Of a stretch of DNA of 64,000 nucleotides, positions 1-60,126 are shown piece by piece. Made by a program: the position numbers and the translations under genes. Position 1 is the stretch's first letter, and each line of letters begins with the position of its first letter. This stretch comes from Pseudomonadota bacterium (GTDB taxonomy: Bacteria > Pseudomonadota > Gammaproteobacteria > Burkholderiales > Burkholderiaceae_C), in the NCBI GenBank assembly GCA_041192445.1, contig JBEEMW010000070.1, positions 21,365-85,364 on the forward strand. Reading direction: 5' to 3'. The notes beneath the pieces were generated by a model. That model worked only from the letters and a program-made list of their open reading frames with translations. It was not told the DNA's origin and did no database searches.

Positions 1-2299
1 GCGCGGGCGGCGCTTTTTGAGCAGGTACCGGCGAGCTTGCAAAAGCCGAATAATCCCGACCAAATTGGCCCTTAGCCCCCGAGTAGCCTGCGTAGTCAGC
101 TCCTGAATTAATAGCACCTGCTGCGCCAGAACCGAAGCCCCTGGCTTTGGGCGTGAGCCACTTGAGCGCCGATTCAGGCAGCTCATCAAAAAACCGGCTC
201 CGCACGTTGTAACGGGTTTGCCCATGCAACATGCGGGTTTGTGAGTGGCTCAGGTACAGGCGCTGGCGGGCGCGGGTAATGGCCACGTACATCAGGCGGC
301 GCTCTTCCTCCAGACCATCATGGTCGCTCATGGAGTTTTCATGGGGGAACAGGCCCTCCTCCATGCCGGTGATGAACACGCAATCAAACTCCAGGCCCTT
401 GCTGGAGTGCACCGTCATGAGCTGAATGGCGTCTTGCCCGGCCTGCGCCTGGTTGTCGCCGGCCTCCAGGGCCGCATGGGTGAGGAAGGCGACGAGCGGA
501 GAAAGTGTCTCACCGGTTTCAGTATCCGGGAAATCCGTTCGCACTGAGCTTGTCGAAGTGCCCGCAAGGTCTTCGACAGGACCCGTCCTGAGCCCGCCGA
601 AGGGCTCAGGCTGAACGGGATTTGCGGTTGCTCCCAGCTCATCCACCGGCAAAGCCACGGCGTCACGACCAAACCCTTCGAGAGAAACAAAACTCTCTGC
701 CGCGTTCACCAGCTCCTCCAGATTCTCGACGCGGTCAGCGCCTTCGCGATCGGCCCGGTAGTGCTCAATCAGGCCGCTGTGGTCCAGCACCAACTCGATG
801 ATTTCACGCAAGGTCATGCCTTGGGTCTGTTCGCGCAACACCTCGATTTTGGCCAGAAATGCACCAATATTGGTGCCAGCCTTGCCGCTGACACCGCTCA
901 CGGCGTCACTCAGCGAACACCCGCTGACCCGTGCCACGTCCTGCAACTGCTCCAGGCTGCGAGTGCCAATGCCACGGGGTGGGAAATTCACAGCCCGCAG
1001 AAAACTCGTGTCATCTCGCGGGTTCTCCAGCAGGCGCAGGTAGGCCAGCGCATTTTTAATCTCGGCCCGCTCAAAAAAGCGTAAACCACCGTACACCTTG
1101 TAGGGCATGGCGGCATTGAACAATGCGGTCTCAATCACCCGGCTCTGCGCATTGCTGCGGTACAGCACGGCAATCTCCTTGCGCGCCATGCCTTCTCGCA
1201 CCAACTGGCGCATTTCATCCACCATCCATTGCGCCTCGGCCAGGTCACTGGCGGACTCATACACACGCACCGGCTCACCGGGGCCTTGATCGGTACGCAG
1301 GTTTTTGCCCAGTCGCCTGGTGTTGTGGCTGATCAGTTCATTGGCGGAATCCAGGATATTGCTGTAGCTGCGGTAGTTTTGCTCCAGCTTGATCTGGTGC
1401 TGCACACCAAACTCACGCACAAAATCGGCCATGTTGCCGACCCGCGCACCGCGAAAGGCGTAGATGCTCTGATCATCATCCCCCACCGCCAGCACACTGC
1501 CGGTCGGACTGAAACTGGCCGCGTCAAGCCCGGAACCACCCGCACCAGTGCCTGCCAGCATCTTGATCCAGGCATATTGCAGCTTGTTGGTATCCTGAAA
1601 TTCGTCGATCAAAATGTGGCGAAAACGGCGCTGGTAGTGTTCACGAATGGGGTCGTTGTCGCGCAGCACCTCAAAGCTGCGCAACATCAACTCACCAAAA
1701 TCCACCACGCCCTCGCGCTGACACTGGTCTTCGTAGAGTTGATAAATCTCGATTTTCTTGCGTGTTTCTTCATCACGCACCTCCACCATATTGGGCCGCA
1801 GGCCATCCTCCTTGCAACCGCCAATGAACCACTGCGTCTGCTTGGGTGGAAACCGCTCGTCGTCGATGTTGAATTGTTTGTACAGGCGTTTGATGGCACT
1901 GAGCTGATCCTGTGTGTCCAGAATCTGAAACGCCTGCGGCAGGTTGGCCATTTTGAAATGTGAACGCAGAAACCGGTTGCACAGTCCGTGAAACGTGCCA
2001 ATCCACATGCCACGCACATTGATTGGCAACATGGCCGAGAGGCGCGTCATCATCTCCTTGGCCGCCTTGTTTGTGAACGTGACCGCCATCACACCGCCGG
2101 GTGAAACCTGCCCCGTTTGCAGCAGCCAGGCGATGCGGGTGGTGAGCACGCGGGTCTTGCCAGAGCCCGCGCCGGCAAGAATGAGGGCATGTTCGGCCGG
2201 CAAGGTCACTGCGGCGCGCTGCTCGGGGTTCAGGGTGCCGAGAAGCGGGGATTGGGTGGCGTCGGGCGACGCATCAAATAACGAAGGGGCAAGAGTCAT
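1..2299 (-). CDS. uvrD: DNA helicase II (UvrD/PcrA family); the C-terminus runs off the window start
   Basis: Hand translation of the minus strand from the ATG at 2299 gives MTLAPSLFDASPD...LNPEQRAAVTLPAEHALILAGAGSGKTRVLTTRIAWL (Walker A), ILIDEFQDTN and VGDDDQSIYAFRGA. There is no stop before position 1, so it is missing from the ORF track, which lists closed ORFs only. Confidence 0.9.
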   Translation of the reverse strand, partial: MTLAPSLFDASPDATQSPLLGTLNPEQRAAVTLPAEHALILAGAGSGKTRVLTTRIAWLLQTGQVSPGGVMAVTFTNKAAKEMMTRLSAMLPINVRGMWIGTFHGLCNRFLRSHFKMANLPQAFQILDTQDQLSAIKRLYKQFNIDDERFPPKQTQWFIGGCKEDGLRPNMVEVRDEETRKKIEIYQLYEDQCQREGVVDFGELMLRSFEVLRDNDPIREHYQRRFRHILIDEFQDTNKLQYAWIKMLAGTGAGGSGLDAASFSPTGSVLAVGDDDQSIYAFRGARVGNMADFVREFGVQHQIKLEQNYRSYSNILDSANELISHNTRRLGKNLRTDQGPGEPVRVYESASDLAEAQWMVDEMRQLVREGMARKEIAVLYRSNAQSRVIETALFNAAMPYKVYGGLRFFERAEIKNALAYLRLLENPRDDTSFLRAVNFPPRGIGTRSLEQLQDVARVSGCSLSDAVSGVSGKAGTNIGAFLAKIEVLREQTQGMTLREIIELVLDHSGLIEHYRADREGADRVENLEELVNAAESFVSLEGFGRDAVALPVDELGATANPVQPEPFGGLRTGPVEDLAGTSTSSVRTDFPDTETGETLSPLVAFLTHAALEAGDNQAQAGQDAIQLMTVHSSKGLEFDCVFITGMEEGLFPHENSMSDHDGLEEERRLMYVAITRARQRLYLSHSQTRMLHGQTRYNVRSRFFDELPESALKWLTPKARGFGSGAAGAINSGADYAGYSGAKGQFGRDYSAFASSPVPAQKAPPA
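62..117 (-). repeat. ~55-bp dispersed repeat (forward orientation on the minus strand), inside the uvrD C-terminal tail
   Basis: The reverse complement gtgctattaattcaggagctgactacgcaggctactcgggggctaagggccaattt matches the copy at 49315-49372 at 40/56 positions, ungapped and hand-counted. It is read in frame as GAINSGADYAGYSGAKGQF. Confidence 0.8.
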
Positions 2300-2388
2300 G
2301 ACCGCATTGTAGAAACCCATAAGCCGCAACCTATGCACCTCAAACCGGGGGCATATGGGGTGTCGGGTATTCATGAGTAGAATCAGCC

Positions 2389-2422
2389 ACCGGGCCCAAG
2401 CAATTGAGGCCCGGTTTTTTTT
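2389..2422 (+). promoter_or_regulatory. Terminator-like hairpin plus T8 in the guaC 5' leader (possible attenuator or 5' stabiliser)
   Basis: accgggcc (2389-2396) pairs with ggcccggt (2408-2415) around an 11-nt loop and is followed by a run of T up to 2422. It sits directly before GGAG (2423-2426) and the guaC ATG at 2435. No upstream plus-strand gene exists for it to terminate. Confidence 0.4.
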
Positions 2423-2434
2423 GGAGCCCGCATC

Positions 2435-3412
2435 ATGGAAATCTTTGATTACGACAACATTTTGCTGCTGCCACGCAAATGCCGCGTGGAGAGCCGCTCG
2501 GAATGCGACGCCAGCGTGGAGCTTGGTGGCAGGCGTTTTCGTATCCCCGTTGTCCCTGCAAACATGAAAACGGTGGTGGATGAATCCATTTGTGTCTGGC
2601 TGGCGCAAAACGGCTATTTTTACGTGATGCACCGGTTTGACCTGGACAATGTGCAGTTCGTGAAGGACATGAAGGCCAAAGGACTCTTCGCGTCGATTTC
2701 GCTGGGTGTCAAAAAGCCGAACTACGCAACCGTCGATCAATTGCTGGGCCTGGGTTTGATTCCCGAATACGTCACCATCGACATCGCGCACGGCCATGCC
2801 GACAGCGTGAAAGACATGATTGGCTATCTCAAGGAAAAAATGCCGTCCACCTTCATCATCGCGGGCAATGTGGCTACACCCGAAGCCGTGATTGATCTGG
2901 AAAACTGGGGCGCTGATGCGACCAAGGTCGGCATTGGCCCTGGCAAGGTGTGCATCACCAAACTCAAGACCGGTTTTGGCACGGGCGGCTGGCAACTGTC
3001 GGCAGTAAAGTGGTGCGCGCGCGTGGCGACCAAACCCATCATTGCGGACGGTGGCATTCGGGACCACGGCGACATTGCCAAGAGTATTCGTTTCGGTGCC
3101 ACCCTGGTCATGATTGGCTCTCTCTTCGCGGGGCACGAAGAATCACCGGGCAAAACCGTAGAAGTGGATGGCAAGCTGTTCAAGGAATACTACGGCTCGG
3201 CCAGTGACTTCAACAAAGGCGAGTACAAACACGTTGAAGGCAAGCGCATCCTGGAGCCCATCAAAGGCAAGCTGGCCGACACGCTGGTCGAGATGGAGCA
3301 GGACGTGCAAAGCTCCATCAGCTACTCCGGTGGCAAAAAACTGATGGATATCCGCAAGGTGAATTACGTTACCCTGGGCGGGGACAACGCGGGCGAACAC
3401 TTGCTGATGTAG
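2435..3412 (+). CDS. guaC: GMP reductase
   Basis: 325-aa ORF starting [16 protein letters not shown]...VVPANMKTV, with [11 protein letters not shown] and a 'GGIR..GDIAK' IMPDH/GMPR-family barrel. Length fits the GuaC type. Confidence 0.9.
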
Positions 3413-6744: not shown

Positions 6745-6785
6745 TGCTACCGGGTAGGTAGCTACTCCGTCAATGGTTAAAAAAC
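6745..6785 (+). repeat. Possible truncated or degenerate copy of the 55-bp repeat in the helicase 5' region
   Basis: tgctaccgggtaggtagctactccgtcaat matches the forward 5' half of the 15158-15213 copy at 20/30 positions. The 3' CGGGGGCTAAGGGCC module is absent. Confidence 0.3.
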
Positions 6786-8843: not shown

Positions 8844-9179
8844 ATGAACGACACTTTGAAGAAAAAAGACTGGTCAGCCCTTGCCAGACGTGCGTTGACA
8901 GCTACTGAAATCATAGCGAATCTGGCTAAACTGGAAGGCTGGACGCTCACTGGAGACGGGGCGTCCATCGCCATTGAAAAGACCTATCCGTTCAAAAATT
9001 ACTATCAGACGATGGCGTTCGTCAATGCCGTTGCCTTCATCGCGCATGTTCAGGACCACCATCCGGATTTGTCGGTGCATTACAGCCGCTGTGTCGTGCG
9101 TTTCAACACACATGACGTCGGCGGCATTTCGGTGACCGACTTTGAATGCGCCACCCAGATTGACGCGCTAATCACATGA
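8844..9179 (+). CDS. phhB: Pterin-4a-carbinolamine dehydratase
   Basis: 111 aa, with the LEGWTL...IEKTYPFKNYYQTMAFVNAVAFIAHVQDHHPDL...THDVGGIS pattern typical of the PCD/DCoH family. Confidence 0.85.
   Translation: MNDTLKKKDWSALARRALTATEIIANLAKLEGWTLTGDGASIAIEKTYPFKNYYQTMAFVNAVAFIAHVQDHHPDLSVHYSRCVVRFNTHDVGGISVTDFECATQIDALIT
8864..8921 (-). repeat. 55-bp repeat copy (forward on the minus strand) inside the phhB N-terminal coding region
   Basis: cagcccttgccagacgtgcgttgacagctactgaaatcatagcgaat matches the 30973-31028 copy at 32/47 and the reverse complement of the 21084-21137 copy at 33/47 (ungapped, hand-counted). It uses unusual AT-rich or rare codons (aga, aca, act, ata). Confidence 0.55.
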
Positions 9180-10108
9180 GCGAGGTCCGGGCCACCCTCG
9201 AAAAGGGATTGATCGTGGCCAACTATGGCCGCCATTTTCTGGTCGAAACGCCAGAAGGCCGGCGTCTGATCTGCCACCCGCGTGGCAAGAAAAGCCAAGT
9301 GGTCGTGGGTGACCGCGTGTTGTGGCAGGCCAGCCAGGACGAAGGCACGATCGAAAAAATTGAAGACCGGCGCAACCTTTTCTACCGGCAAGACGAGATT
9401 CGCACCAAGTCGTTTGCGGCTAACCTGGATCAGGTTTTGATACTGGTCGCGGCCGAGCCCGAGTTCTCAAGCAGCCAGCTGTCGCGTGCCCTCATCGCCG
9501 CTGAGGCGGAGCACATTACCCCCATCATTGCACTCAACAAGAGTGATCTGGTAGACCCCTTTGCCCGCGCCTGGGAATGGCTGTTGCCCTACCGTCACAT
9601 GCACTATGGCGTGTTGCCACTGTCTTTAAAGCAATCGGGTGAAGTGGACCGTGCCGAACTGCTCAAACACCTGAAAGGCAAAACGACCCTGGTTCTGGGG
9701 CCGTCGGGGGCGGGGAAAAGCACACTGATCAACCTGTTGGCACCCGGCTCATTGGCCCAGACCGGCGAGATTTCACAGGCTCTGAACTCCGGCAAACACA
9801 CAACGACCAGTACCACCTGGTATTGGGTCGACACTGAGAGAACCACAGCCCTGATTGACTCTCCGGGGTTCCAGGAATTTGGCCTCAACCATATCGATCC
9901 GGCGCAACTGGCCGCTTACATGCCCGACATAAAACCCCATGTGGCCAACTGCAAGTTTTACAACTGCACGCACCTGCACGAACCAGGCTGCGGCGTGATG
10001 GCTGCCGTCAATTCAACAGAATCGGGCCCCAGCCCTGATGGAATAAGCGCAAACCGCTACAAAATTTATAGCGAACTGTTTGCTGAGCTGAAACAGTCAA
10101 AATATTGA
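9176..10108 (+). CDS. rsgA: Ribosome small-subunit-dependent GTPase A
   Basis: LNKSDL, GPSGAGKSTLINLL, and the zinc-knuckle CKFYNCTHLHEPGCGV. The ATG overlaps the phhB stop (ATGA). Confidence 0.92.
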   Translation: MSEVRATLEKGLIVANYGRHFLVETPEGRRLICHPRGKKSQVVVGDRVLWQASQDEGTIEKIEDRRNLFYRQDEIRTKSFAANLDQVLILVAAEPEFSSSQLSRALIAAEAEHITPIIALNKSDLVDPFARAWEWLLPYRHMHYGVLPLSLKQSGEVDRAELLKHLKGKTTLVLGPSGAGKSTLINLLAPGSLAQTGEISQALNSGKHTTTSTTWYWVDTERTTALIDSPGFQEFGLNHIDPAQLAAYMPDIKPHVANCKFYNCTHLHEPGCGVMAAVNSTESGPSPDGISANRYKIYSELFAELKQSKY

Positions 10109-14711: not shown

Positions 14712-15158
14712 ATGAAAAACAAAACTGCCGCTGCATGGCTCGCATTTGTAGGCGGCCCTCTGGGTCTGCACCGGTTTTATTTGGCGGGGTTTGGTGATCT
14801 GTTGGGATGGTTATTGCCAATTCCCACGGCTCTGGGCTTGTATGGCGTTCAGCGGATGCAAAGTCTTGGCGTCGATGACGAATGGGCCTGGATTTTGATT
14901 CCCCTGCTGGGATTCACCATCGCAGGCTGCGCCCTCACCGCAATCGTCTACGGATTGATGACCCCGGAAAAGTGGAACGCCAAGTTCAACATTCACGCCT
15001 CGCCGGACGCGCCTGCCGGAGAAACCCACTGGTTAACGATAGGGGCAGTGGTGTTCGCACTGCTTGTTGGATCGACCGTTTTGATGTCGTCCATCGTGTT
15101 CAGTTTTCAACGCTATTTTGAGCACCAAATTGAGGAAGCGCGCAAGATTTCTCAATGA
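14712..15158 (+). CDS. TM2 domain-containing membrane protein
   Basis: AAWLAFVGGPLGLHRFYLAGFGD is a TM2-domain signature, and further TM segments follow. The ATG abuts the upstream stop. Confidence 0.7.
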   Translation: MKNKTAAAWLAFVGGPLGLHRFYLAGFGDLLGWLLPIPTALGLYGVQRMQSLGVDDEWAWILIPLLGFTIAGCALTAIVYGLMTPEKWNAKFNIHASPDAPAGETHWLTIGAVVFALLVGSTVLMSSIVFSFQRYFEHQIEEARKISQ

Positions 15159-15213
15159 AAAAGGCCTTTAGCCCCCGTCAATATTGCGCGGGTAGCTACT
15201 ATTTCGATAGCAT
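15158..15213 (-). repeat. 55-bp dispersed repeat filling the spacer between the convergent TM2 and PiT genes
   Basis: The reverse complement is gatgctatcgaaatagtagctacccgcgcaatattgacgggggctaaaggcc. It has strong similarity to the 49315-49372 copy, including both the ATGCTA...TAGCT and ACGGGGGCTAA.GGCC modules. Confidence 0.85.
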
Positions 15214-19712: not shown

Positions 19713-19734
19713 GGTTTTACTCCTTTAATGAACG

Positions 19735-19790
19735 AAATATGGTTCCAGCCCTCGTCAACAGGGCGTGAATAGCTATTTATTTAATAGCAC
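19735..19790 (-). repeat. 55-bp dispersed repeat in the acnB upstream spacer, overlapping the 3' end of the upstream gene
   Basis: The reverse complement ggtgctattaaataaatagctattcacgccctgttgacgagggctggaaccatattt matches the 49315 copy at 38/57 ungapped positions. The TAA stop at 19777-19779 lies inside it. Confidence 0.8.
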
Positions 19791-20305: not shown

Positions 20306-21346
20306 TCAGTGGCCAGGGACATCAAAATAGGCCCTGACCCCGGATGGCAATGCCCTGCCCGTATGATGCGCCCGCTCCAGCGTCTGCCAAAAATAGCGAT
20401 AGCTGGCCCGGTCATGCAGGCGCCCCCCAAAGCTGATGGGAGCCCATGCCACACCTTCGGCTTTCAGAATAATTTCTGAAGCCATTTCAATGTCAAGCTC
20501 GTCCGGCATGAACGCCGCAATAATCGGGCGGATCTGGTCAGGGTGAATGCTCCACATGCGCTGATAACCCATTTCTCGCGCCGCCTGTCGGGCCGCGGCA
20601 CGCAATACTGCCGTGTCCTTGAACTCGGTCACCACGCAATGCGACGGCACCTTGCCATGCGCATGGCAAGCCGATGCGATCTCCAGCTTGGCCCGCACCA
20701 CCAGCGGATGGCTGAACTGCCCCGCGCCCGACATACCCTCAGCGGGAATGGCCCCGGCATGTGCAGACACAAAATCCATGAGTCCAAAACTGATGGACTG
20801 CACACGCGGATGGGCTGCAATATCAAACGCCCGGTGCACGGCAGCGGGTGATTCGATCAGCACGTGTAGCGGCAATTGGCTGCCCGCAGGGCCCGGCCAT
20901 GCGCGATCAACAGCCTTGACCGCACGATCCACATCTGCGACGGACTCAACCTTGGGAATCATCAGGTGGCACAGCGCTGCACCAGCTTTGCCAACAACGG
21001 TGGCCACATCCTGCTCAAACAACGGATGGTCCACCGGGTGAACCCGCACAGCCACCCGGGCTGCTGCAGAATTCTTGACATTTGCTATGTTTTTTGTAGC
21101 TAATCGTGCATGATTGGCGAGGGCTGCAACCATATTGGCATGGTCAAGCTCACCCCCAACCGGTGCACCATCCTCACAATCCAGCGTGACATCAAAGACA
21201 CACACACCGAACTCTTCGGTCATCTCGGCCTGCAATGCCAAGCTCTTGCGCATCCGCGCCTCAACACCACTGTAATGGTCACACACCGGCAAGAAACCGG
21301 CGGATGCCTGGGCACCCATCAGTGCGTCGCGTGGATGCATGACCAT
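20306..21346 (-). CDS. HpcH/HpaI aldolase / citrate lyase beta-subunit (CitE)-like protein
   Basis: FDVTLDCEDGAP and LIESPAAV...ISFGLMDF resemble the CitE / malyl-CoA lyase-like fold; this is a family-level call only. The start is trimmed to the ATG at 21346, downstream of the mdh stop. Confidence 0.6.
   Translation of the reverse strand: MVMHPRDALMGAQASAGFLPVCDHYSGVEARMRKSLALQAEMTEEFGVCVFDVTLDCEDGAPVGGELDHANMVAALANHARLATKNIANVKNSAAARVAVRVHPVDHPLFEQDVATVVGKAGAALCHLMIPKVESVADVDRAVKAVDRAWPGPAGSQLPLHVLIESPAAVHRAFDIAAHPRVQSISFGLMDFVSAHAGAIPAEGMSGAGQFSHPLVVRAKLEIASACHAHGKVPSHCVVTEFKDTAVLRAAARQAAREMGYQRMWSIHPDQIRPIIAAFMPDELDIEMASEIILKAEGVAWAPISFGGRLHDRASYRYFWQTLERAHHTGRALPSGVRAYFDVPGH
21084..21137 (+). 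repeat. 55-bp repeat copy inside the CitE-like gene (antisense to the coding strand)
   Basis: ttgctatgttttttgtagctaatcgtgcatgattggcgagggctgcaaccatattg matches the reverse complement of the 30973-31028 copy at 39/56, and the first 10 nt are identical. It is translated as VAALANHARLATKNIANV. Confidence 0.7.
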
Positions 21347-22593: not shown

Positions 22594-23358
22594 ATGGCCG
22601 AAGGCGTGGGCGCAGCGGAGGGCGTGGCTCAGACGCCCTCATTCAGCCCGCTGTACCAGCAGATCAAGTCCCTGATTCTGCAAAGTTTGCGCATGGGAGA
22701 GTGGAAGCCCGGTGAAGCCATTCCCAGTGAGATGGACCTGGCCACGCGTTTTCGCGTCAGCCAGGGGACCGTACGTAAAGCCATTGACGAGCTGTCGGCA
22801 GAAAATCTGGTGGTTCGGCGCCAGGGCAAGGGCACCTTTGTGGCCACCCACGCCGAGCAGCAGGTGCAGTTCCGCTTTTTGAAACTGGTGCCCGACAACG
22901 GCCCCCCGGGCAGCGAAGGACCGGCCCAGCGCGACATCATTGAGTGCCGCCGTACCCGCGCCAGTGCTGACGTGGCCCGTGCGCTGGCGCTGCGTACCGG
23001 TGACGCCGTGTTGCAGGCCCGACGGGTCTTGAGCTTTGGCGGTACACCGACGATTCTGGAAGACATCTGGCTGCCAGCTGCCCCGTTCAAGGGTCTGACA
23101 GCCGAGCGACTGGCCAACTACCACGGCCCGATGTACGCATTATTTGAAACCGAATTCAATGTCCGCATGGTTCGTGCCGAAGAGAAAATACGGGCTGAGC
23201 CAGCCACCGATGGGCGTGAGATGCTATTAAAAGTGGCGCATGGCACACCCTTGCTCAGCGTGGAGCGCATCGCCTACACCTACAAGGATGCGCCGATGGA
23301 GTTGCGTCGCGGCTATTACCGGACCGACACGCATCACTACCACAACACCCTGGGTTAA
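22594..23358 (+). CDS. GntR-family transcriptional regulator (HutC/FarR-type, UTRA effector domain)
   Basis: PLYQQIKSLILQSLRMGEWKPGEAIPSEMDLATRFRVSQGTVRKAIDEL is a winged-HTH GntR signature, and the C-terminal half is UTRA-like. ATG at 22594. Confidence 0.85.
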   Translation: MAEGVGAAEGVAQTPSFSPLYQQIKSLILQSLRMGEWKPGEAIPSEMDLATRFRVSQGTVRKAIDELSAENLVVRRQGKGTFVATHAEQQVQFRFLKLVPDNGPPGSEGPAQRDIIECRRTRASADVARALALRTGDAVLQARRVLSFGGTPTILEDIWLPAAPFKGLTAERLANYHGPMYALFETEFNVRMVRAEEKIRAEPATDGREMLLKVAHGTPLLSVERIAYTYKDAPMELRRGYYRTDTHHYHNTLG

Positions 23359-28621: not shown

Positions 28622-28646
28622 ACCGCTGCGACCTGCTGACGCCACG

Positions 28647-28675
28647 AAAACCCCGGCTGGTCCGGGGTTTTTCTT
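28647..28675 (+). terminator. Intrinsic terminator after gltA
   Basis: AAAACCCCGG-ctggt-CCGGGGTTTTTCTTT. Confidence 0.85.
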
Positions 28676-28716
28676 TGCGGGAAGCATAAAATCAGACCTC
28701 CACAGGAATCATCACC

Positions 28717-30958: not shown

Positions 30959-30972
30959 TCATTTTATTGAAC

Positions 30973-31028
30973 AAATTGGCTTACAGCCCCCGTGAAACGG
31001 GCGTTAGTAGCTATAAATAACATAGCAA
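30973..31028 (-). repeat. 55-bp dispersed repeat filling the leuD-leuB spacer
   Basis: The reverse complement ttgctatgttatttatagctactaacgcccgtttcacgggggctgtaagccaattt matches the 49315 copy at 38/56 ungapped positions. Confidence 0.85.
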
Positions 31029-31030
31029 AT

Positions 31031-37118: not shown

Positions 37119-37834
37119 ACACGACGCCTTTAAAAGCCCAACGCACCCGAATCAAGATTTGCGGATTGACCCGTGAACAGGACGTGGATGCGGCTGTGGC
37201 CGCCGGGGCGGATGCGGTCGGTTTTGTGCTCTATGACAAAAGCCCGCGCTACGTCCCCATCGAGCGGGCGGCTGAACTGGCCCGCCGACTGCCACCTTTC
37301 GTCACCCCCGTGTTGCTGTTCGTTAACGAGACTGCTATTAAAATAATAGCTGCTTGTGCACATATTCCGGGGGCTACAACCCAATTTCATGGTGATGAAA
37401 CACCTGAACAGTGCCAGGAGGCCACCCTGCAAGGCACCCGCGCCTACCTGCGTGCGGCGCGCATTCCGCTGGGGGATGGCGCTGCCAGCTTTGACCTCGT
37501 AAAATACGCACAAGATTACTCAAACGCCCAGGCCATATTGCTCGACGCACATGTTGAGGGTTATGGCGGCGGCGGCAAGGTTTTTAATTGGTCACTTCTT
37601 CCTCCAAGCGTCAACGTTCACCTCGTCTTGAGTGGTGGGCTGAGTGCTGCAAACGTGGCCGACGGCATTTTGCAGGTGCGGCCGCGTTGTAAAACGCTGG
37701 CCGTAGATGTCAGTTCCGGTGTCGAATCCTCCAAGGGGATCAAGGACATCGACAAAATCAACCGCTTCGTCGCTGCCGTTCGCGCAGCCGACAGGCAATT
37801 CGAAAACCTTGCGGGACAGACCAAGACGCCATGA
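37115..37834 (+). CDS. trpF: Phosphoribosylanthranilate isomerase
   Basis: RIKICGLTREQDVDAAVAAGADAVGFVLYDKSPRYV...QFHGDE...YGGGGKVFNWSLL...LSGGL...AVDVSSGVE. The ATG overlaps the truA stop (ATGA). Confidence 0.93.
   Translation: MNTTPLKAQRTRIKICGLTREQDVDAAVAAGADAVGFVLYDKSPRYVPIERAAELARRLPPFVTPVLLFVNETAIKIIAACAHIPGATTQFHGDETPEQCQEATLQGTRAYLRAARIPLGDGAASFDLVKYAQDYSNAQAILLDAHVEGYGGGGKVFNWSLLPPSVNVHLVLSGGLSAANVADGILQVRPRCKTLAVDVSSGVESSKGIKDIDKINRFVAAVRAADRQFENLAGQTKTP
37334..37387 (+). repeat. 55-bp repeat copy in frame inside trpF
   Basis: gctattaaaataatagctgcttgtgcacatattccgggggctacaacccaattt matches the era-proximal copy at 38/54 ungapped, and the 49315 copy at about 74% with small gaps. It contains a perfect 7-bp inverted repeat, GCTATTA-aaa-TAATAGC, and rare codons (ata ata tgt). 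Confidence 0.8.
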
Positions 37835-45398: not shown

Positions 45399-47591
45399 AT
45401 GAAGTCCACCTTGAAACGCCTGTCAGCATTCACCATTCTCACGGTTCTTGCAACCGTGTCCATCATCGCCACCGCCCAGCTCACAACTCTGGGCGGCAAA
45501 AAGTCGACTGCACGAGCCCATGCGACCACCGGGCCCCTGGCTGGCGAAGCCCCTTTGAACCGGTTGATCATCAAATTCAAGGATCAGGCAACGGATAAAA
45601 CCGGTGCGTTCAGCGCAAGCCTGGCTCAAGGGCATGTCAAGGCCTTGAGTGCCGGTGGTGCCATGCAATCCGCAAGCACCGGGCTTGTCGAACTGTCGTA
45701 TCTCAAATCCATCACCCCGCAGTCCCATGTGGCCCTGACGACGCAAAAACTCGGCCGGGCCGAACTGTCTGCGCTGGCCAAACAGCTGGCACAAGACCCT
45801 CGGGTTGAATACGCCGAGATTGACGAGAAGGTTTATCCGTTGATGGTGCCAACCGACACCGACTTTGCGACCCAACAGTGGAATCTGAAAGCCCCCGGCG
45901 TCGCCGTGGGTGGAGCCAATCTGACGCCAGCGTGGGACCGGCAGACAGTTGGATTAGCCCCCATCAATGGGGTGGGCGTCGTGGTGGCCGTTCTGGACAC
46001 CGGGTATCGCCCTCACGCTGATTTGGCCGCCAACATTTTGACGGGTTATGACTTTATCAGCGCGGACTCCGCCGGCGTATTCACGACCGCCCGTGATGGC
46101 GACGGACGTGACGCTGATGCGCAGGACCCCGGCGACTGGGTGGCAACGGCATCGACCAACTGCCCGGTCGCAGACTCCAGCTGGCACGGAACCCATGTGG
46201 CGGGAATCGTTGCGGCCGTCGGCAACAACGGCGCCGGTGTGATTGGTGTGGCCTACGGTGCAAAGATTTTGCCTGTGCGTGTATTGGGAGTTTGTGGCGG
46301 GTATACCTCCGATATCGCAGCAGGTATTCGCTGGGCAGCTGGTCTCGCCGTGAGTGGGGTCAGCAACAATCTCAACGTTGCCAAAGTCATCAACCTGAGT
46401 CTGGGCAGCAGCGGGATTTGCTCCAGCACCTTTCAAACTGCAATCACAGCGGCCCGTGCTGCGGGCAGCGTGATCGTGACAGCGACCGGCAACGACGGTG
46501 CCCTGTCCATCGGTCAACCAGCCAACTGCAATGGTGTTATTGCGGTCACTGCACACACGCGACTCGGTGACAACGCCGATTACGCCAATGTCGGCGCAGG
46601 AACCACCATCAGTGCACCGGGAGGTGGTTATGGGACCAATATTGCGGGTGATGGCAGCTCCATTTATTCAACTGCCAACGCCGGCCTTACAACACCCGCC
46701 TCTGACAACTACACCAGTGAGGCCGGCACCAGCTTTGCAGTTCCCCACGTGGCGGGCGTGGTTGCCCTGATGTTTCAGGCCAAACCGGGCATCACACCGG
46801 ATGAAGTTCAGTCCCGCTTGGTCACCTCGGCGCGCGCACACCCTGCAGGGACTTATTGTGTTGGCATTGCGGCATGCGGCGCGGGTCTGCTGGATGCGGA
46901 TGCTGCCGTGGCGCTCACGCTGGATGCAACAGTCCCCATCACCACAGCGTCAACCGCGCCAGCGAATCCAGTCCTACGGGGCGCTACGGTGAGCCTGACC
47001 GGTGTTGCCACACCGGGGGCCAGTGCTATTTCGTCCGTGGTCTGGACTCAACTTTCCGGACCTGCCGTCACCATCACCAACGCCGCTACAAGCAATGCGT
47101 CTTTTGTGGCTTCGTCTGGTGCAGCCAGTTATGTGTTCCGTTTCAGGGCAACAGATGGCCTCGGGCACACCTCAGACAGTTGGGTCAGCGTTCTGACCAG
47201 CAATACAGCCCCGGTGCTGAACACCATTTCAGCCCAAACCGTGGTGGTTGGTCATAGTTTGAACTTCACTGTCAGTGCCACGGATACCGATGGGGATGTG
47301 GTGACCTATTCAGCCAGTGGTCTCCCGTCCGGTGCAACCTTCAACACCGTTACTGGCGCATTCAGCTGGAGCAACGCACAACCGGCTGGCAGCTACAGTT
47401 TTTTCATAGCCCCCTCCGATGGAGCGGCCTATGGTGCGGCTCAAACGGTCACTGTGACGGTTACCGCCGCCGCAGTCGCAGTCGCAACATCATCGGGTGG
47501 CGGCGCCGCCGACTGGACTGATTTGCTGGCCGTTTTGCTACTGGCCTTTATGGCTCTGGCCTTTCGCCGACGCACCCCTGCGCCACGCTGA
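45399..47591 (+). CDS. S8-family (subtilisin-like) serine peptidase with I9 propeptide, Ig-like repeats and a GlyGly-CTERM sorting tail
   Basis: Catalytic triad contexts VAVLDTGY (D), HGTHVAGIVAA (H) and GTSFAVPHVAG (S). Also a signal peptide and the C-terminal SSGGGAADWTDLLAVLLLAFMALAFRRRTPAPR. Confidence 0.9.
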   Translation: MKSTLKRLSAFTILTVLATVSIIATAQLTTLGGKKSTARAHATTGPLAGEAPLNRLIIKFKDQATDKTGAFSASLAQGHVKALSAGGAMQSASTGLVELSYLKSITPQSHVALTTQKLGRAELSALAKQLAQDPRVEYAEIDEKVYPLMVPTDTDFATQQWNLKAPGVAVGGANLTPAWDRQTVGLAPINGVGVVVAVLDTGYRPHADLAANILTGYDFISADSAGVFTTARDGDGRDADAQDPGDWVATASTNCPVADSSWHGTHVAGIVAAVGNNGAGVIGVAYGAKILPVRVLGVCGGYTSDIAAGIRWAAGLAVSGVSNNLNVAKVINLSLGSSGICSSTFQTAITAARAAGSVIVTATGNDGALSIGQPANCNGVIAVTAHTRLGDNADYANVGAGTTISAPGGGYGTNIAGDGSSIYSTANAGLTTPASDNYTSEAGTSFAVPHVAGVVALMFQAKPGITPDEVQSRLVTSARAHPAGTYCVGIAACGAGLLDADAAVALTLDATVPITTASTAPANPVLRGATVSLTGVATPGASAISSVVWTQLSGPAVTITNAATSNASFVASSGAASYVFRFRATDGLGHTSDSWVSVLTSNTAPVLNTISAQTVVVGHSLNFTVSATDTDGDVVTYSASGLPSGATFNTVTGAFSWSNAQPAGSYSFFIAPSDGAAYGAAQTVTVTVTAAAVAVATSSGGGAADWTDLLAVLLLAFMALAFRRRTPAPR
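47490..47588 (+). other. GlyGly-CTERM sorting signal (rhombosortase recognition tail) of the S8 protease
   Basis: A Gly-Gly-Gly motif, a hydrophobic helix of about 17 residues, then an RRR cluster at the extreme C-terminus. The adjacent gene is rhombosortase-like. Confidence 0.75.
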
Positions 47592-48215: not shown

Positions 48216-49310
48216 CTATGGAATCAGGTCAAGCGCCTGCATGTACGCCGGGTGCACCATCAGGGCGTCCCAGTCCGGCGCCGGCGTCACGGGCAGCAAG
48301 GCCAGCCGGCGCGCTTCGCTGGCGTCCATTGGCTGCCATTGACTCCTGATTTGCGCCTCCACCATGCCGTCCAGCAACTCGTCTACGGCTTGGCCACCGT
48401 CCACAGACTGGTTACACAGCAGCACCATGTCGCAGCCCGCGTTGAGCGCCACCACAGCCGCCTGCGAGTAGCTGACTTGCTGCCCGTCGATCAGGCGGGC
48501 ACCGGCCATGGACAAATCGTCGCTGAAAATCGCGCCACCGAATCCGAGCTGACCGCGCAGGATGTCGTTAAGCCATTTGGCAGAAAAACCTGCCGGGCGG
48601 GCATCGACTTTCGGGTAGATGACGTGGGCCGGCATCACGCTGGACAGCGTGGTGCTCAACCAGCCGTAGGCTGCAGCGTCATCCGCCAGAATGGCTTTGA
48701 GGCTGCGTTTGTCAACCGGGATATCGGTGTGGGAGTCGGCTTTGACAAAGCCGTGGCCGGGGAAATGTTTGCCGCAGTTGGCCATGCCGCTGATGTGCAG
48801 GCCGTGCATCAGGCTTTTGGCCAGCAGGCTGACGACACGCGGATCGCGTCCAAAGGAGCGGTCTCCAATCACACTGCTTGCACCAAAGTCCAGGTCCAGC
48901 ACGGGTGTGAAGCTTAAGTCCACGCCACAGGCACGCAGCTCGGAACCCAGAATGTAGCCGCAGGCGGTTGCCGCGTTGGTGGCGGCCATGGCCGATGCGC
49001 CCGGCCTCCCCGGCTTGTGGCCGGGCCTCTCGTCCATCCACATCTCGCCCAGCGCCCGCATCGGCGGCAAATGGGTGAAACCATCGGTCTTGAAACGCTG
49101 GACGCGCCCGCCTTCGTGGTCGACACAGATCAGCAGGTCTTGACGCACTGTCTTGATGTCGCGGCACAGGCGGGCGAGTTGCTCGCGACTGCTCCAGTTG
49201 CGGGCAAACAGGATGATGCCACCCACCAGGGGGTGCTGGAGACGCTGGCGGTCTTTGGGCGTGAGGTTCAGGCCTGCAACGTCGATGATCAAGGGGGCGT
49301 GTTGGGTCAT
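48216..49310 (-). CDS. nagZ: Beta-N-acetylhexosaminidase (peptidoglycan recycling)
   Basis: PLIIDVAGLNLTPKDRQRLQHPLVGGIILFARNW...VDHEGGRVQRF...KHFPGHG. The start is trimmed to the ATG at 49310. Confidence 0.93.
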   Translation of the reverse strand: MTQHAPLIIDVAGLNLTPKDRQRLQHPLVGGIILFARNWSSREQLARLCRDIKTVRQDLLICVDHEGGRVQRFKTDGFTHLPPMRALGEMWMDERPGHKPGRPGASAMAATNAATACGYILGSELRACGVDLSFTPVLDLDFGASSVIGDRSFGRDPRVVSLLAKSLMHGLHISGMANCGKHFPGHGFVKADSHTDIPVDKRSLKAILADDAAAYGWLSTTLSSVMPAHVIYPKVDARPAGFSAKWLNDILRGQLGFGGAIFSDDLSMAGARLIDGQQVSYSQAAVVALNAGCDMVLLCNQSVDGGQAVDELLDGMVEAQIRSQWQPMDASEARRLALLPVTPAPDWDALMVHPAYMQALDLIP

Positions 49311-49314
49311 ATGG

Positions 49315-49372
49315 ATGCTACAAAATAAATAGCTGCTCACGCATATTCTACGGGGGCTAAGGGCCAATTTTC
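49315..49372 (+). repeat. 55-bp dispersed repeat (my reference copy) occupying the acpS-nagZ junction
   Basis: atgctacaaaataaatagctgctcacgcatattctacgggggctaagggccaatttt. The acpS stop (49357-49359) and its last 4-5 codons lie inside it, and it ends 5 nt from the nagZ ATG. Confidence 0.85.
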
Positions 49373-49770
49373 TCTACGACGCAGAAGCTGGCAGCGTAAT
49401 CGGTCTCATCGGTCACACTCACGTGGGCGGTGAGGCCCCGGGCTTCGAACCAGTCTTTCAGGCCCCCATGCAGCACGATGCAGGGCTTGCCGGCGTTGGG
49501 GTGGTCTTGCGGCAGTTTGGCGATTTCACACAGGCGCCAGGTCATCGGCATACGCATGCCCAGGCCGATGGCTTTGCTGAACGCCTCCTTGGCACTGAAG
49601 CGGGTGGCCAGGTAGCGCACCCCGCGCTCCGGCCAGCGTGCGCTTCGGGCTTTCCAGGTGGTGAACTCGGCATCACTTAGCACTTTTTGTGCAAAACGGT
49701 CGCCATGGCGCTCCAGGCTGGCGCGGATTCGGCGAACGTCGCAGATGTCGGTGCCGATGCCGTAAATCAT
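49357..49770 (-). CDS. acpS: Holo-[acyl-carrier-protein] synthase
   Basis: [15 protein letters not shown]...[11 protein letters not shown]. The start is trimmed to the ATG at 49770. Confidence 0.9.
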
Positions 49771-51424: not shown

Positions 51425-52456
51425 TCATTCGTACCCGAATGAGCGAACCCGGGCTTCATCATCCGCCCAACCCGAGCGCACCTTGACCCACATCTCGATG
51501 AACACTTTCGCGTCCAGGAGTTTCTCAAGCTCAACCCGCGTCTCGGTACCAATACGTTTGATGCGTTCGCCCTTGTCACCAATCACCATGGCTTTATGGG
51601 TGTCGCGCTCCACCACGATGGTGGCGGCGATCTTCAGCAGGCGCTTTTGTTTGCCACGTCCGGCCTCTTCCTCGAACTTGTCGATCACCACGGTGGAGGT
51701 GTAGGGCAGCTCGTCGCCTGTCAGGCGAAAGAGTTTTTCGCGCACCGTCTCGCTGGCCAGAAATTTCTCGCTGCGGTCGGTGAGTTCGTCTTCGGCATAA
51801 CGCCAAGCTTGTTCGGGCAGGTATTTTTCGCAAATGCCCAGCAATCGTTCGATATCTTTGGCGTTCTTGGCCGACATCGGCACAAACTCGTTAAAGGCGT
51901 GGCGCTGGTGCATCTCTTGCAACCACGGTGCGATGTCGGCCCGGCGGTTGACCTGGTCAAGCTTGTTGGCCACCAACAGGGTGGGAATGTCTTTGCCCAA
52001 CAGCGCCAGAACCTTGGCATCGGCCTGGTTGAACATGCCTGCTTCGACCACAAACAAAATCAGGTCCACGTCGCCGACAGCACCTTTCACGGTTTTATTC
52101 AAGGCGCGGTTCAAGGCGTTGTTGTGACGGGTCTGAAAGCCTGGTGTGTCGACGAACACAAATTGTGTCGCCCCCAGCGTGTGCATGCCGGTGATGCGGT
52201 GGCGCGTGGTTTGGGCCTTGCGTGAGGTGATGCTGATCTTTTGGCCCACCAGCGCGTTGAGCAAAGTCGATTTGCCAACGTTGGGTTTACCCACGATGGC
52301 AATCAGGCCACAGCGCTGCCCTTCCACGGGCACGCCCGCAGGTGCAGCAACACGCGACTCCCTGAGCAGGCCCTTGAGCATGCCTTCAAGGTCATTTTGG
52401 CCTTCAGCCCCCGTAGCGTCTGCATCAGCAGCTATGGTTTTAGTAGCGTTCATCAT
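51425..52456 (-). CDS. era: GTPase Era (start codon uncertain; the N-terminal ~25 codons are repeat-derived)
   Basis: [21 protein letters not shown] (G1), DTPG, NKLD, and a KH domain at the C-terminus. The alternative ATG at 52381 would give a more canonical length. Confidence 0.9.
52394..52449 (-). repeat. 55-bp dispersed repeat at the rnc-era junction
   Basis: The reverse complement acgctactaaaaccatagctgctgatgcagacgctacgggggctgaaggccaaaat matches the 49315 copy at 42/56 ungapped positions. Confidence 0.88.
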
Positions 52457-54509: not shown

Positions 54510-56320
54510 CAGCCGTCCACCTGCAAAATGGCCAAAAAGGCTTCTTGGGGAACCTCAACCGAACCAATCTGCTTCATGCGTTTCTTGCCTTCTTTTTGTT
54601 TGTCCAGGAGCTTGCGTTTGCGTGAAATATCACCGCCATAACACTTGGCGATCACGTTCTTGCGCAGCGCCTTGATTGTCTCACGGGCAATGATATTGGC
54701 CCCGATGGCAGCCTGGATGGCCACGTCATACATCTGGCGCGAAATGACCTCGCGCATTTTGGCGACCACAGCTCGCCCACGGAACTGCGATTGCGACCGG
54801 TGCACGATGATCGACAGCGCATCCACCTTGTCACCATTGAGAAGGATGTCGACCTTCACCACGTCGGCAGTACGGTACTCCTTGAACTCGTAATCCATAG
54901 ACGCGTAGCCGCGTGACACCGACTTGAGCTTGTCAAAGAAGTCCAGCACGATTTCGGCCAGCGGAATTTCGTAGGTGAGCATCACCTGGCGACCGTGGTA
55001 CGCCATGTTCATCTGCACGCCACGTTTCTGGTTGGCCAGCGTCATGACCGAGCCCACATACTCCTGCGGCATATAGAGGTGCACCGTGACGATGGGCTCG
55101 CGAATCTCGTCCAGTCGCCCCTGATCGGGCATCTTGGACGGGTTCTCGACCATCTTCACCTCACCGTCAACCCCCACCACCTGATACACCACACTGGGTG
55201 CGGTGGTGATGAGGTCCTGGTCAAATTCGCGCTCCAGGCGCTCCTGCACGATCTCCATGTGCAGCAGCCCCAGAAAACCGCAGCGAAAACCAAATCCCAG
55301 CGCCTGACTCACTTCAGGTTCGTAGTGCAGCGAGGAGTCGTTGAGCTTGAGTTTTTCCAGGCTGTCACGCAAGCCCTCATATTGATTGGCTTCCGTTGGA
55401 TACAAGCCGGCAAACACCTGAGGCTGGATTTCCTTGAAGCCGGGCAACGCTTCAGTGGCAGTGAAGGCTGCGCCGCCGGTACCGGGCTTGATCAGGGTGA
55501 TGGTGTCGCCCACCTTGGCCGCCTGCAATTCGCGGATACCCGCAATGATGTAACCCACCTCACCCGCTTCGAGAGACTGCCGCGCCTCATTGGCAGGTGT
55601 GAACACACCCAGCGAATCGGCGTTGTACATCGCGCCTGACGCCATCATTTTGAACCGCTCGCCTTTGCCCAGACGGCCGTCAACCACACGCACCAGCATG
55701 ACAACACCGACATAGGTGTCAAACCAGCTGTCAACAATCATGGCCCGCAACGGGCCATCGGGGTTACCTTTGGGCGGAGGAATCCGGGCGACGACGGCTT
55801 CGAGAATGTCGTCCACACCCATGCCCGTTTTGGCCGAGCACGGAATCGCGTTCGTCGCGTCGATCCCGATGACATCTTCAATTTCGGATTTCGCGTTCTC
55901 TGGATCTGCATTTGGCAAATCCATCTTGTTGAGCACCGGTACCACTTCCACACCCAACTCAAGGGCGGTGTAGCAATTGGCAACGGTCTGCGCTTCAACA
56001 CCCTGACTTGCATCGACAACCAGCAACGCGCCTTCGCATGCAGACAGCGAGCGGGACACTTCGTAAGAGAAGTCAACGTGTCCAGGTGTGTCGATCAAAT
56101 TGAGGTTGTAAACCTGCCCGTCAAGCGCTTTGTATTTGAGTGCAGCGGTCTGCGCCTTGATGGTTATCCCACGCTCTTTCTCGATGTCCATCGAGTCCAG
56201 AACCTGCGCCTCCATCTCACGATCGGCGAGCCCGCCGCATCGCTGGATCAATCGATCTGCCAATGTTGATTTGCCGTGATCAATGTGCGCAATGATCGAA
56301 AAATTTCTGATGTGATTCAT
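54509..56320 (-). CDS. lepA: Translation elongation factor 4
   Basis: [20 protein letters not shown]...DTPGHVDF...NKMDL, plus the LepA C-terminal domain. ATG at 56320. Its stop overlaps the lepB ATG by 1 nt. Confidence 0.97.
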
Positions 56321-59475: not shown

Positions 59476-59496
59476 GACGGGCCTGATCCAGCCGCG

Positions 59497-60126
59497 CTAG
59501 CGGTTGGGCACCTCAAACGTGGCATTGCGTAAAAACCCCGCCGGCATCTGCAAGGCCGACGTGCCGCCAAACTGCTTGTGCGCCGCCAGCAACTCGTCCA
59601 GGCGCGGGTCACGAATCATGACCGGCGGCTGCCCTGCCACCACGGCGACAGACTCGGTGGCCATCCCTGCCCCCGCGAGAGTCGTACCGGGCGAAACGGT
59701 GCCGGGGCCATTCACAACACCCCAGCCCAGCACCGCCACGGCTGTGACTGACGCCAGTCCGGCCACCAGCTGCCATCGAAAGCGGGAGGCATTGGCACCC
59801 TCTTGTTTGATGCCATTCAGGTCATTAACCCTCGTATTCATTGCGCTAACAGCTATTAATACAGGAGCATCTACCGTTTGCAGGGGGATGGCCTCGCGTT
59901 GCAGGCGTTGCTGCAGACGTGCCACAAAATCCAGATCACCGGCGCTGCCCAAGGCATCCCCGGATCGGAGTACGTCGCCGACCACGTGGTAGGCGTGCCA
60001 AGTGGCCCGGGCATCGACATCCATACTGACTGTTTCAGCCACTACGGCGAATTCATTCCCGCGCAACTGCCCATCGGCCAGGGCCGACACCATTTCGCGG
60101 ATTTTCAAAGTGTCTTGCATCATCAT
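59497..60126 (-). CDS. rseA: Anti-sigma-E factor RseA/MucA-like
   Basis: REMVSALADGQLRGNEF...ARATWHAYHVVGDVLRS (RseA N-terminal domain), with a single TM segment WQLVAGLASVTAVAVLGW. Confidence 0.85.
   Translation of the reverse strand: MMMQDTLKIREMVSALADGQLRGNEFAVVAETVSMDVDARATWHAYHVVGDVLRSGDALGSAGDLDFVARLQQRLQREAIPLQTVDAPVLIAVSAMNTRVNDLNGIKQEGANASRFRWQLVAGLASVTAVAVLGWGVVNGPGTVSPGTTLAGAGMATESVAVVAGQPPVMIRDPRLDELLAAHKQFGGTSALQMPAGFLRNATFEVPNR
59815..59870 (-). repeat. 55-bp repeat copy in frame inside rseA (cytoplasmic linker just before the TM segment)
   Basis: The reverse complement atgctcctgtattaatagctgttagcgcaatgaatacgagggttaatgacctgaat matches the 49315 copy at 35/56 ungapped positions. 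It is translated as DAPVLIAVSAMNTRVNDLN. Confidence 0.7.

Follow-up and report, generated by a model that had tools for sequence, protein, structure and literature searches.

A 58-bp DNA motif dispersed through spacers and genes of Rhodoferax/Polaromonas-type genomes and formed by substitution in at least one gene

The stretch analyzed here, referred to below as the window, comprises 64,000 nt of a Rhodoferax/Polaromonas-type genome (assembly GCA_041192445.1, contig JBEEMW010000070.1, positions 21,365 to 85,364, forward strand). It contains a 58-bp word that recurs about every 6 kb and is found both between and within genes. The word is a DNA-level signal that is confined to one clade, is kept at orthologous sites and is independent of the strand of transcription, and that neither forms an RNA structure nor stems from recent copying. 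In at least one gene, trpF, it was created by substitution and not by insertion. As to its role, we tentatively favor, at somewhat less than even confidence, a recognition site on double-stranded DNA with a chromosome-level function that would be read by a protein; the binding, the kind of protein and the effect of binding are what we infer beyond these observations.

The motif was defined by an 18-base spaced pattern, GCTA-N9-TAGCT-N6-GC-N8-CG-N-GGGCT, which represents the invariant columns of a ten-copy alignment. With at most two mismatches, this pattern matches exactly ten sites in the window and none in 100 dinucleotide-preserving shuffles. In a leave-one-out analysis with nhmmer, each omitted copy was regained at E-values from 7e-13 to 9e-6, with the background starting at E ~0.3. 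The initial annotation of the window had proposed a dispersed family of at least ten repeats, and the ten it listed are all present within a few bases of where it had placed them, in a clearly non-random family. Its hand-counted identities agree with the pairwise identity of 62-77% among aligned repeat pairs in a repeat search of the window; measured over whole copies, identity among the window copies is 45-71%. Both orientations occur, as had been described, with the copies at 21083, 37333 and 49316 on the plus strand and the remaining ones on the minus strand.

Iteration of the profile over the window and 121 related loci (loci outside the window are cited below by L number) yielded 194 matches with 187 unique cores. 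The refined consensus of these 187 copies is tGCTAy-N7-RTAGCTgcttRCGCa-N6-aCGrGGGCTrgaggcc.ATTT; it spans about 58 bp, its 5' edge is sharp and the flanks are devoid of information. Conservation at the 18 pattern positions is partly circular, as most loci were gathered through them, but other positions are conserved even though they lie outside the selection pattern (T1, Y6, W9-11, R14, T22, R24, C25, A28, A35, G47, C49 and ATTT at 52-55). Positions 14-17 read RTAG, either as ATAG (68%; 127/187) or as GTAG (30%; 56/187); this tetranucleotide is internal, with an inverted RTAGC 7 bp upstream. The 5' palindrome on its own (GCTA-N9-TAGCT) has nine matches in the window against 0.02 expected. The earlier description of the copies as AT-rich holds only in a relative sense, since their GC content is 46% compared to 57.7% for the window (21-46% in the first 24 bases). 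Likewise, a supposed truncated copy at 6745-6785 does contain the palindrome, at 6746-6763, but nothing beyond this 5' module, and nhmmer finds no match there.

The copies in the window, including an eleventh that is weaker, are as follows.

59..116, minus strand: copy in the C-terminal tail of a UvrD-like helicase gene (2-3136, minus), sense; GGAGC replaces RTAGC; one mismatch; leave-one-out E 1.3e-9.
6746..6763, no strand assigned: palindrome-only partial copy, intergenic, GCTACCGGGTAGGTAGCT, which is the 5' module without the 3' part.
8861..8918, minus strand: copy antisense in the pterin-4a-carbinolamine dehydratase gene (8844-9179, plus), at the N-terminus; encodes KKDWSALARRALTATEIIAN.
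10016..10073, minus strand: the eleventh, weaker copy, antisense in the C-terminal region of RsgA (9176-10108, plus); E ~1e-4; three mismatches (0.03 expected).
15155..15212, minus strand: copy filling the 54-bp spacer of two convergent genes (stops at 15158 and 15213).
19732..19789, minus strand: copy between co-directional genes; the final codons and stop of the upstream gene (GAIK*) lie inside the 5' palindrome.
21083..21140, plus strand: copy antisense in an HpcH/HpaI-family lyase gene (20306-21346, minus), within the Pfam domain.
30970..31027, minus strand: copy filling the leuD|leuB spacer and ending 3 nt before the leuB ATG; orthologous in many lineages, with differing middle parts.
37333..37390, plus strand: copy sense in trpF (37115-37834, plus); encodes AIKIIAACAHIPGATTQF by rare A/T-ending codons; no indel relative to 80 orthologues.
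49316..49373, plus strand: copy between acpS and nagZ; the motif's GCTA supplies, on the complementary strand, the acpS stop TAG; nagZ starts 5 nt past the motif's 5' end.
52391..52448, minus strand: copy sense at the start of era, in an N-terminal extension, where it spans codons 3-21 provided that translation starts at the ATG at 52456.
59812..59869, minus strand: the most divergent copy, sense in the anti-sigma-E gene rseA (59497-60126, minus), in the linker just after the RseA_N domain; two mismatches; E 9e-6.
45890-45931 and 23198-23239, both minus strand: possible decayed or nascent copies inside genes, with three and five mismatches to the 18-base pattern, respectively; a site with three mismatches is expected 0.03 times.

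Seven of the eleven copies thus lie within protein-coding genes, which had gone unnoticed in the initial annotation (the placement of the Era copy depends on the true start codon). The four intergenic ones, at 15155-15212, leuD|leuB, acpS|nagZ and 19732-19789, nearly fill their spacers.

The origin of a genic copy could be traced in trpF. A comparison with 80 metagenomic trpF orthologues (69-94% amino-acid identity) reveals zero gaps through the motif segment. About 44 of the 80 match 14-18 of the 18 pattern bases, by means of ATA, GCT, GCA, CAA and TTT codons, while in the remaining orthologues only 5-12 bases match and a comparable peptide (A..[IVM].AA.A...GA..QF) is written with GC-ending codons. 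Because no indel separates the orthologues and a similar peptide is written elsewhere in GC-ending codons, the trpF copy must have arisen through codon substitution at its present site. The perfect 7-bp inverted repeat that had been reported in this copy is correct on inspection. Within the segment, motif-bearing lineages reach an amino-acid identity of 0.63 and the others one of 0.39, whereas the flanks give 0.76 and 0.74, a contrast that is partly circular as the lineages were divided on the pattern itself. The better conservation of the segment in bearing lineages at equal conservation of the flanks suggests that the DNA motif constrains the TrpF protein and not the reverse. Loci with a motif-free trpF contain no other copy in ~100 kb, while in bearing loci a further copy turns up about every 11 kb. 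The neighbor-joining tree of trpF is too poorly resolved to show whether the motif-bearing lineages form a single clade.

A similar picture emerges from the genic copies as a whole. Genes were called with a simple codon-usage caller, which reproduces the calls on a near-identical metagenome contig, and 67 of 176 placed copies (38%) lie wholly inside called genes. They make use of essentially one reading frame per strand (18/20 sense, 24/26 antisense), as the other frames run into TAG or TAA. Both strands read as Ala-rich peptides due to the GC dinucleotides at positions 2, 17, 26 and 41, which are in phase 3. Third codon positions have a GC content of 0.39 inside the motif versus 0.76 elsewhere in the gene, a drop seen in all genic copies (67/67), they are conserved as strongly as first and second ones, and the copies reside in weakly conserved protein segments such as tails, linkers and loops. 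One may ask whether the motif is a matter of chance or a by-product of coding for Ala-rich helices with GCN codons, devoid of any DNA-level signal. The in-phase GC dinucleotides do produce Ala-rich peptides on both strands, and motif-free trpF genes already reach 5-12 of the 18 bases. Yet, 57-62% of the copies are intergenic and contain stop codons, the third positions are conserved equally, zero matches are expected by chance and the matches listed from a genome collection (see below) are confined to one bacterial family, which makes this explanation close to untenable.

The location and strand of the 176 placed copies were analyzed next to their sequence. Inside genes, 28/176 copies are sense and 39/176 antisense. 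In spacers between tandem genes, 32/176 are on the same strand as the genes and 33/176 on the opposite strand. Convergent and divergent spacers account for 24/176 and 12/176, respectively, and 8/176 near a locus edge were left unclassified. Expressed as density, convergent spacers carry 2.5 copies per kb, tandem spacers 1.15, divergent spacers 0.48 and coding sequence 0.09, a gradient across the location classes that follows the degree of constraint. The motif ends a median of 10-16 nt from the nearest stop codon and often overlaps it. No orientation bias relative to GC skew or to the majority gene strand was seen among the placed copies, and copies are singletons that are never tandem and do not form inverted doublets.

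The many copies at gene 3' ends and in operon spacers raise the question of whether an RNA-level element is involved, i.e., an mRNA 3' stabilizer, a processing site, a terminator or a small RNA gene. The consensus allows two small hairpins that are workable on the forward strand only, in which 76% of cells pair compared to 29-45% in slid registers, with G-U pairs and internal mismatches. These hairpins follow from the consensus itself and do not indicate selection for pairing. When the ten window copies were folded, z-scores lay between -2.7 and +1.2; a few copies (z = -2.7, -2.2) outdid their shuffles, but most did not. No covariation was detected in the 5' palindrome or in seven registers of a possible second hairpin, where the frequencies of paired cells equal the product of the column frequencies; the pair-count covariation score is 0.127 versus 0.123 in shuffles, with 123 of 500 shuffles reaching the observed value. 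The initial annotation was therefore right that the element is not a classic hairpin of the repetitive extragenic palindromic (REP) type. It was equally right to leave it outside the named families as far as Rfam is concerned, since the window has no match at the gathering score and four weak ones at E <=5, none of which is at a copy. No U-run directly follows a stem. Given the even orientation of copies in genes and tandem spacers, the lack of skew bias and covariation and the unremarkable folding, the motif is best regarded as a double-stranded DNA signal, and an RNA-level element is very improbable. A small-ORF (open reading frame) explanation was also dismissed: a recurrent peptide, LAxSPR..SSY, appears in three reverse frames, but stops and indels interrupt it, and the short translations have no Pfam match.

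A collection with one genome per species (596 Gb) was scanned with the 18-base pattern and contains at least 118 matching stretches. By arithmetic, about 17 would be expected by chance, in arbitrary taxa. Among the 80 titles listed, the matches belong to Rhodoferax, Polaromonas, Ca. Aalborgicola, Ca. Egaibacter, Acidovorax caeni and Paracidovorax wautersii or to unclassified metagenome-assembled genomes (MAGs) labeled Burkholderiales, beta proteobacterium, Pseudomonadota or, once, Gammaproteobacteria; no other named genus is present among them. The nearest sampled genome to the window is that of R. saidenbachensis, at 79% nucleotide identity. In sister lineages, the 5' palindrome, AGCTGC and the GGCC.ATTT tail are kept at the same spacing, whereas the middle part is swapped. 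The variant middles include AGCGCTTAT..ATAAGCGCT, GCGCAGG..CCTGCGC, CTTGCG..CGCAAG and GCGCTAC, and some are clean palindromes. The most REP-like form seen, also resembling a REPIN (a REP doublet), is a sister-variant copy in L197 (8219-8280) that forms one long inverted repeat, ATAGCTGCCAGCGCTTA..TAAGCTCTGGCAGCTAT, with the RTAGC heads as part of it. Mobile DNA carries the motif as well. In viral contigs, 40 of the 42 matches are true family members and the other two are low-GC chance matches; several copies lie in the early regions of temperate phages, beside repressors, primase and NinB. Further copies are rarer in these contigs, with about one per 37 kb compared to about one per 11 kb in other motif-bearing loci. 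Comamonadaceae plasmids bear the motif too. On a plasmid of Rhodoferax antarcticus (CP019241, 12595-31911), a 19-kb stretch with toxin-antitoxin genes and IS1634 copies harbors six motif copies, every one of them intergenic and on the same strand, which is a density above the chromosomal one.

The term repeat family, as implied by the initial annotation, suggests mutual copies in non-coding DNA, and this part of the claim did not survive. Over the 25 variable columns, mean pairwise identity is 0.367, exactly the value in column-shuffled controls (0.367), 38% of the copies are genic in a fixed frame and the trpF copy was made in place. A slight surplus of very similar pairs is due to orthologous copies in different genomes. 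Among the 187 copies, neither subfamily structure nor recent duplication was seen, with mutual information only between adjacent columns. These results bear on a second explanation, an old REP-like or non-autonomous mobile family in which an imperfect palindrome headed by (A/G)TAG was moved by a REP-associated tyrosine transposase (RAYT) or another HUH enzyme, divergence has become saturated and genic copies are secondary. Several features fit: copies after stops, enriched between convergent genes and filling short spacers, as in P. naphthalenivorans (PMC5217627); RTAG at positions 14-17, followed by sequence whose consensus can pair; palindromic sister variants, the long inverted repeat in L197 and genus-specific sequence; and copies with indels or on plasmids, on phages and in an integron cassette. 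However, there is no covariation, most copies fold no better than shuffles, near-identical copies and subfamilies are absent, and singletons occur instead of inverted doublets. The genic share of 38% and a trpF copy reached by codon changes, which is impossible for transposition, weigh further against it. Neither of the two loci with paired copies that were checked (L212 and L045) shows an evident transposase-like ORF between or beside them, and a survey paper on REP elements does not mention Comamonadaceae. We thus consider a mobile origin quite unlikely.

Besides trpF, orthologous sites are conserved for one gene in six genomes and for pairs of genomes in ThiL, GcvP, PutA, a YbiB-like protein and E2/E3 linkers. 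Across lineages, the copy at the leuD|leuB junction stays within a few bases upstream of the leuB ATG; one lineage has it overlap with the C-terminal LeuD residues KPWLAH, for which the rare CTA codon is used there. The acpS|nagZ junction has an orthologous copy of another variant in a Polaromonas MAG. The gltA|leuC spacer holds a canonical intrinsic terminator in both the window (28622-28716) and R. saidenbachensis (L032 2480-2760), and only in the latter is it followed by a motif copy, in a spacer that is about 130 bp longer; this is a presence/absence difference that coincides with an indel.

In-place change of this kind evokes uptake sequences. Uptake drive, as in the uptake signal sequence (USS) of Haemophilus and the DNA uptake sequence (DUS) of Neisseria, is the best-documented known process by which many dispersed sites, including those within genes, converge in place. 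Applied to our motif, the competence or type IV pilus machinery would prefer motif-containing DNA, and biased uptake and recombination would convert near-matches without the need for any function in cis. The synonymous and conservative recoding in trpF, the preference for the least conserved protein segments in a fixed usable frame, the equal use of both strands, the orthologous sites kept within the clade and the genus-level variants are all in line with such a drive. The same holds for the lower density in phage contigs (~1/37 kb versus 1/11 kb), a density that tracks constraint and A/T tracts near the helical phase as in the extended USS, albeit as a weak signal. Nonetheless, 58 bp and ~45 bits amount to two to five times the length of any known uptake sequence, and one copy per ~6-11 kb is 5-10 times below the density of USS or DUS. 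Inverted pairs acting as terminators were not seen, and a small plasmid is dense with copies that are all on one strand. Our literature search found neither sequence-specific uptake nor well-studied natural competence for Rhodoferax or Polaromonas, and nothing relevant for Comamonadaceae. An uptake-like origin is therefore rather unlikely in our view.

The reading that we tentatively favor, a protein-read site on double-stranded DNA, can be outlined as follows. Within the Rhodoferax/Polaromonas group of Comamonadaceae, a protein would read the motif, most likely as a dimer that sits on the invariant palindrome GCTAY-N7-RTAGC and makes additional putative contacts along the asymmetric 3' part (GC, CG.GGGCT and GGCC.ATTT). 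Without any transposition, point substitutions would create and preserve the copies where they are, joined by small indels in unconstrained spacers, protein tails and loops. The copies would settle wherever the local sequence tolerates them, most densely past stops and between convergent genes, less so in promoter-bearing spacers and least in coding sequence, where the least conserved protein segments would host them in the one open frame per strand and at the cost of rare codons. By analogy with what has been proposed for REP elements and bacterial interspersed mosaic elements (BIMEs), the likeliest role would be an architectural or topological one at the chromosome level; gene-specific regulation is less likely. 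By-eye comparison with the consensuses of sigma-70, sigma-54, IHF, Fis, Lrp and OxyR/LysR sites gave no fit.

A number of observations weigh against this protein-site reading. The conserved information, ~45 bits, is far above what is needed to specify a few hundred sites, and upkeep at every site implies either strong per-site selection or a directional drive. The consensus alone may leave room for single-strand structure. Wrapping or bending would be expected to leave a period near 11 bp in A/T content, but the one observed is weak (p = 0.066 in the helical band) and not significant over all periods. A TrpA loop and the TrpB tail have extra in-frame length in the proteins that bear the motif there, and these copies or intergenic ones may have originated by insertion. 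Finally, middle parts that change this fast would sooner be expected of REP/RAYT systems or uptake sequences than for the site of a core nucleoid protein.

A copy of the motif also resides in a widespread resistance integron. The gcuF/orfF cassette, which is ORF-less, occupies the gap between dfrA12 and aadA2 in class 1 integrons, is annotated as DUF1010 (PF06231) and was matched in ~1,740 plasmid records. On pCTX-M3 (NC_004464.2 ~66.7 kb; L244 2995-3039), it contains motif positions 7-56 in register (nhmmer E 1.2e-10). The DUF1010 'protein' starts with FLASSPCVASASSYRF, obtained by translating the motif on its reverse strand, and ends in the translated attC site of the cassette. The motif itself is located ~75 nt upstream of the true attC site and lacks the core sites R'' (RYYYAAC) and R' (GTTRRRY), so it is not an attC site. 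By name, nearly all of the 413 DUF1010 homologues are from Comamonadaceae (mostly Acidovorax, Comamonas, Alicycliphilus, Simplicispira, Melaminivora and Polaromonas). A single genome has several of them, and they recur in chromosomal integron cassette arrays next to intI (two genomes: L246 3003-12400, L247 7944-19300). A Polaromonas MAG carries an integron after trpB-trpA-accD in a region syntenic with 37.8-51 kb of the window, where the window has none. The in-register motif copy points to Comamonadaceae as the source of the gcuF cassette.

Some further observations concern the genes next to the copies. Neither leuB nor nagZ has a recognizable Shine-Dalgarno sequence, and both begin 3-5 nt past the 5' end of a motif copy (31028-31033 and 49308-49315). 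In L135, the Shine-Dalgarno sequence of trpA (GGAG) is built from the motif half-site, with RTAGC changed to GGAGC. Elsewhere in the window, a small ORF in the leuC-leuD gap (30113-30280) corresponds to the 43-residue gene of the entericidin family (PF08085) that is called on the near-identical contig L001. A weak Rfam match to AsrC, the antisense RNA of rseC, at 56246-56320 on the plus strand (23 bits against a gathering score of 111; E 0.006), downstream of rpoE-rseA-rseB, is probably noise.

A 58-bp word at hundreds of sites that overrides codon bias and constrains a protein implies that some protein or process reads these genomes. Its identification would add either a nucleoid or topology factor or a DNA-uptake or drive system to an abundant clade of freshwater and wastewater. 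A bolder interpretation, which is conceivable but doubtful, is that the motif represents a new class of long composite 'self' signal in Comamonadaceae. It would then be either an uptake or recombination-drive sequence, the first beyond Neisseriaceae and Pasteurellaceae and several times the length of any known one, or a site for an abundant DNA-binding protein; both ways, the signal would be powerful enough to alter codon choice and restrict amino-acid sequence at hundreds of positions in each genome, and would diversify by genus. In practical terms, binning and source tracing of DNA can use the motif as a sharp taxonomic signature, as with the copy held by the globally spread dfrA12-gcuF-aadA2 cassette array. 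It also gives rise to spurious ORFs and false 'repeat element' calls and distorts analyses of codon usage and selection in host genes.

Part of the family is already on record as a spaced motif without an explanation. Tong, Schliekelman and Mrazek (2017; BMC Genomics 18:27, PMC5217627) reported ATAGCT(N)22CAAAAG in Polaromonas naphthalenivorans CJ2 as a 'potential novel motif' with 125 occurrences, of which 101 (81%) are intergenic and 18 (14%) genic; 34 of the 101 intergenic ones lie between convergent genes, and occurrences fall within ~50 bp of gene ends. The same study found 140 motif pairs in Rhodoferax ferrireducens T118, the most of all genomes analyzed, and a pair GCTTAT(N)5AAGCG with 114 copies in A. 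ebreus, which we recognize as the core of one of the sister-variant middle parts. It did not provide a full consensus, an analysis of genic copies, a cross-genome comparison or a function (PMC5217627). Their motif and ours share the bacterial family, a similar copy number and a similar location near gene ends and between convergent genes, and the supplementary pairs CGCTA_9_TAGCT, GCTAT_6_NATAG and TAGCT_32_ATTTG correspond to positions 1-19 and 52-56 of our motif (PMC5217627). The middle and 3' parts differ, however, with TATTG..CAAAAG in the reported motif (PMC5217627) and aCGrGGGCT in the window motif, and ATAGCT(N)22CAAAAG has no match in the window or in 1.4 Mb of related loci. Because of these differing parts, the P. 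naphthalenivorans motif is a sister variant and not the same word. Together with the densities of ~1/6 kb in the window and ~1/11 kb in other motif-bearing loci, the 125 strict matches of the related pair in P. naphthalenivorans (PMC5217627) indicate that the hundreds of copies per genome foreseen in the initial annotation are probable. Another dispersed repeat, BRE, is known from Polaromonas, Rhodoferax, Acidovorax and Delftia, where it is mostly intergenic with some occurrences in ORFs (Hot et al. 2011, PMC3110155). By its description it is set apart from our motif: BRE is ~90 bp long, has 69% GC on average in Bordetella and is often tandem, as a variable number tandem repeat (PMC3110155), while the motif is 58 bp, has 46% GC and is never tandem.

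Compared to the mobile families, the motif has with REP, BIME and REPIN elements in common that hundreds of short, lineage-specific copies are dispersed after genes and between convergent genes, with (A/G)TAG by a partly self-complementary stretch. In REP elements, which are imperfect palindromes of 20-40 nt, a GTAG (or CGTC) head stands at one end; RTAG lies inside the motif. The motif differs from these elements in lacking hairpin covariation or stability, doublets and near-identical copies, in its 38% genic share and in the in-place origin of the trpF copy. A miniature inverted-repeat transposable element or a derivative of an insertion sequence does not match either: the ends TGCTAY and GGCC.ATTT are not inverted repeats of each other, in agreement with the earlier remark that terminal inverted repeats are absent, the flanks hold no information and the trpF copy shows no indel in 80 orthologues. 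Rickettsia palindromic elements are likewise short, dispersed and located in frame within tolerant gene segments, but they are palindromic, hairpin-forming insertions that add residues, whereas the trpF copy adds none.

The closest parallels in evolution are with words that spread by substitution. HIP1, the palindrome GCGATCGC of cyanobacteria, is likewise over-represented in a clade-specific manner, occurs in genes as well as spacers, persists through substitution at the expense of codon preference and has a function that is still debated. HIP1 is 8 bp, fully palindromic and far denser, while the motif is 58 bp, composite and only partly palindromic. USS and DUS share with the motif the in-place substitution, the restricted genic frames, the weakly conserved protein segments, the use of both strands, the conservation of orthologous sites, the genus-level variants and a core with phased A/T tracts (a weak signal in the motif). 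They measure 10-32 bp, with a core of 9-12 bp, and occur about once per kb, in contrast to a 58-bp motif with blocks spread over 55 bp and one copy per ~6-11 kb that does not form terminators from inverted pairs. Taken together, the motif resembles REP elements in where it is placed, and USS and HIP1 in how it evolves.

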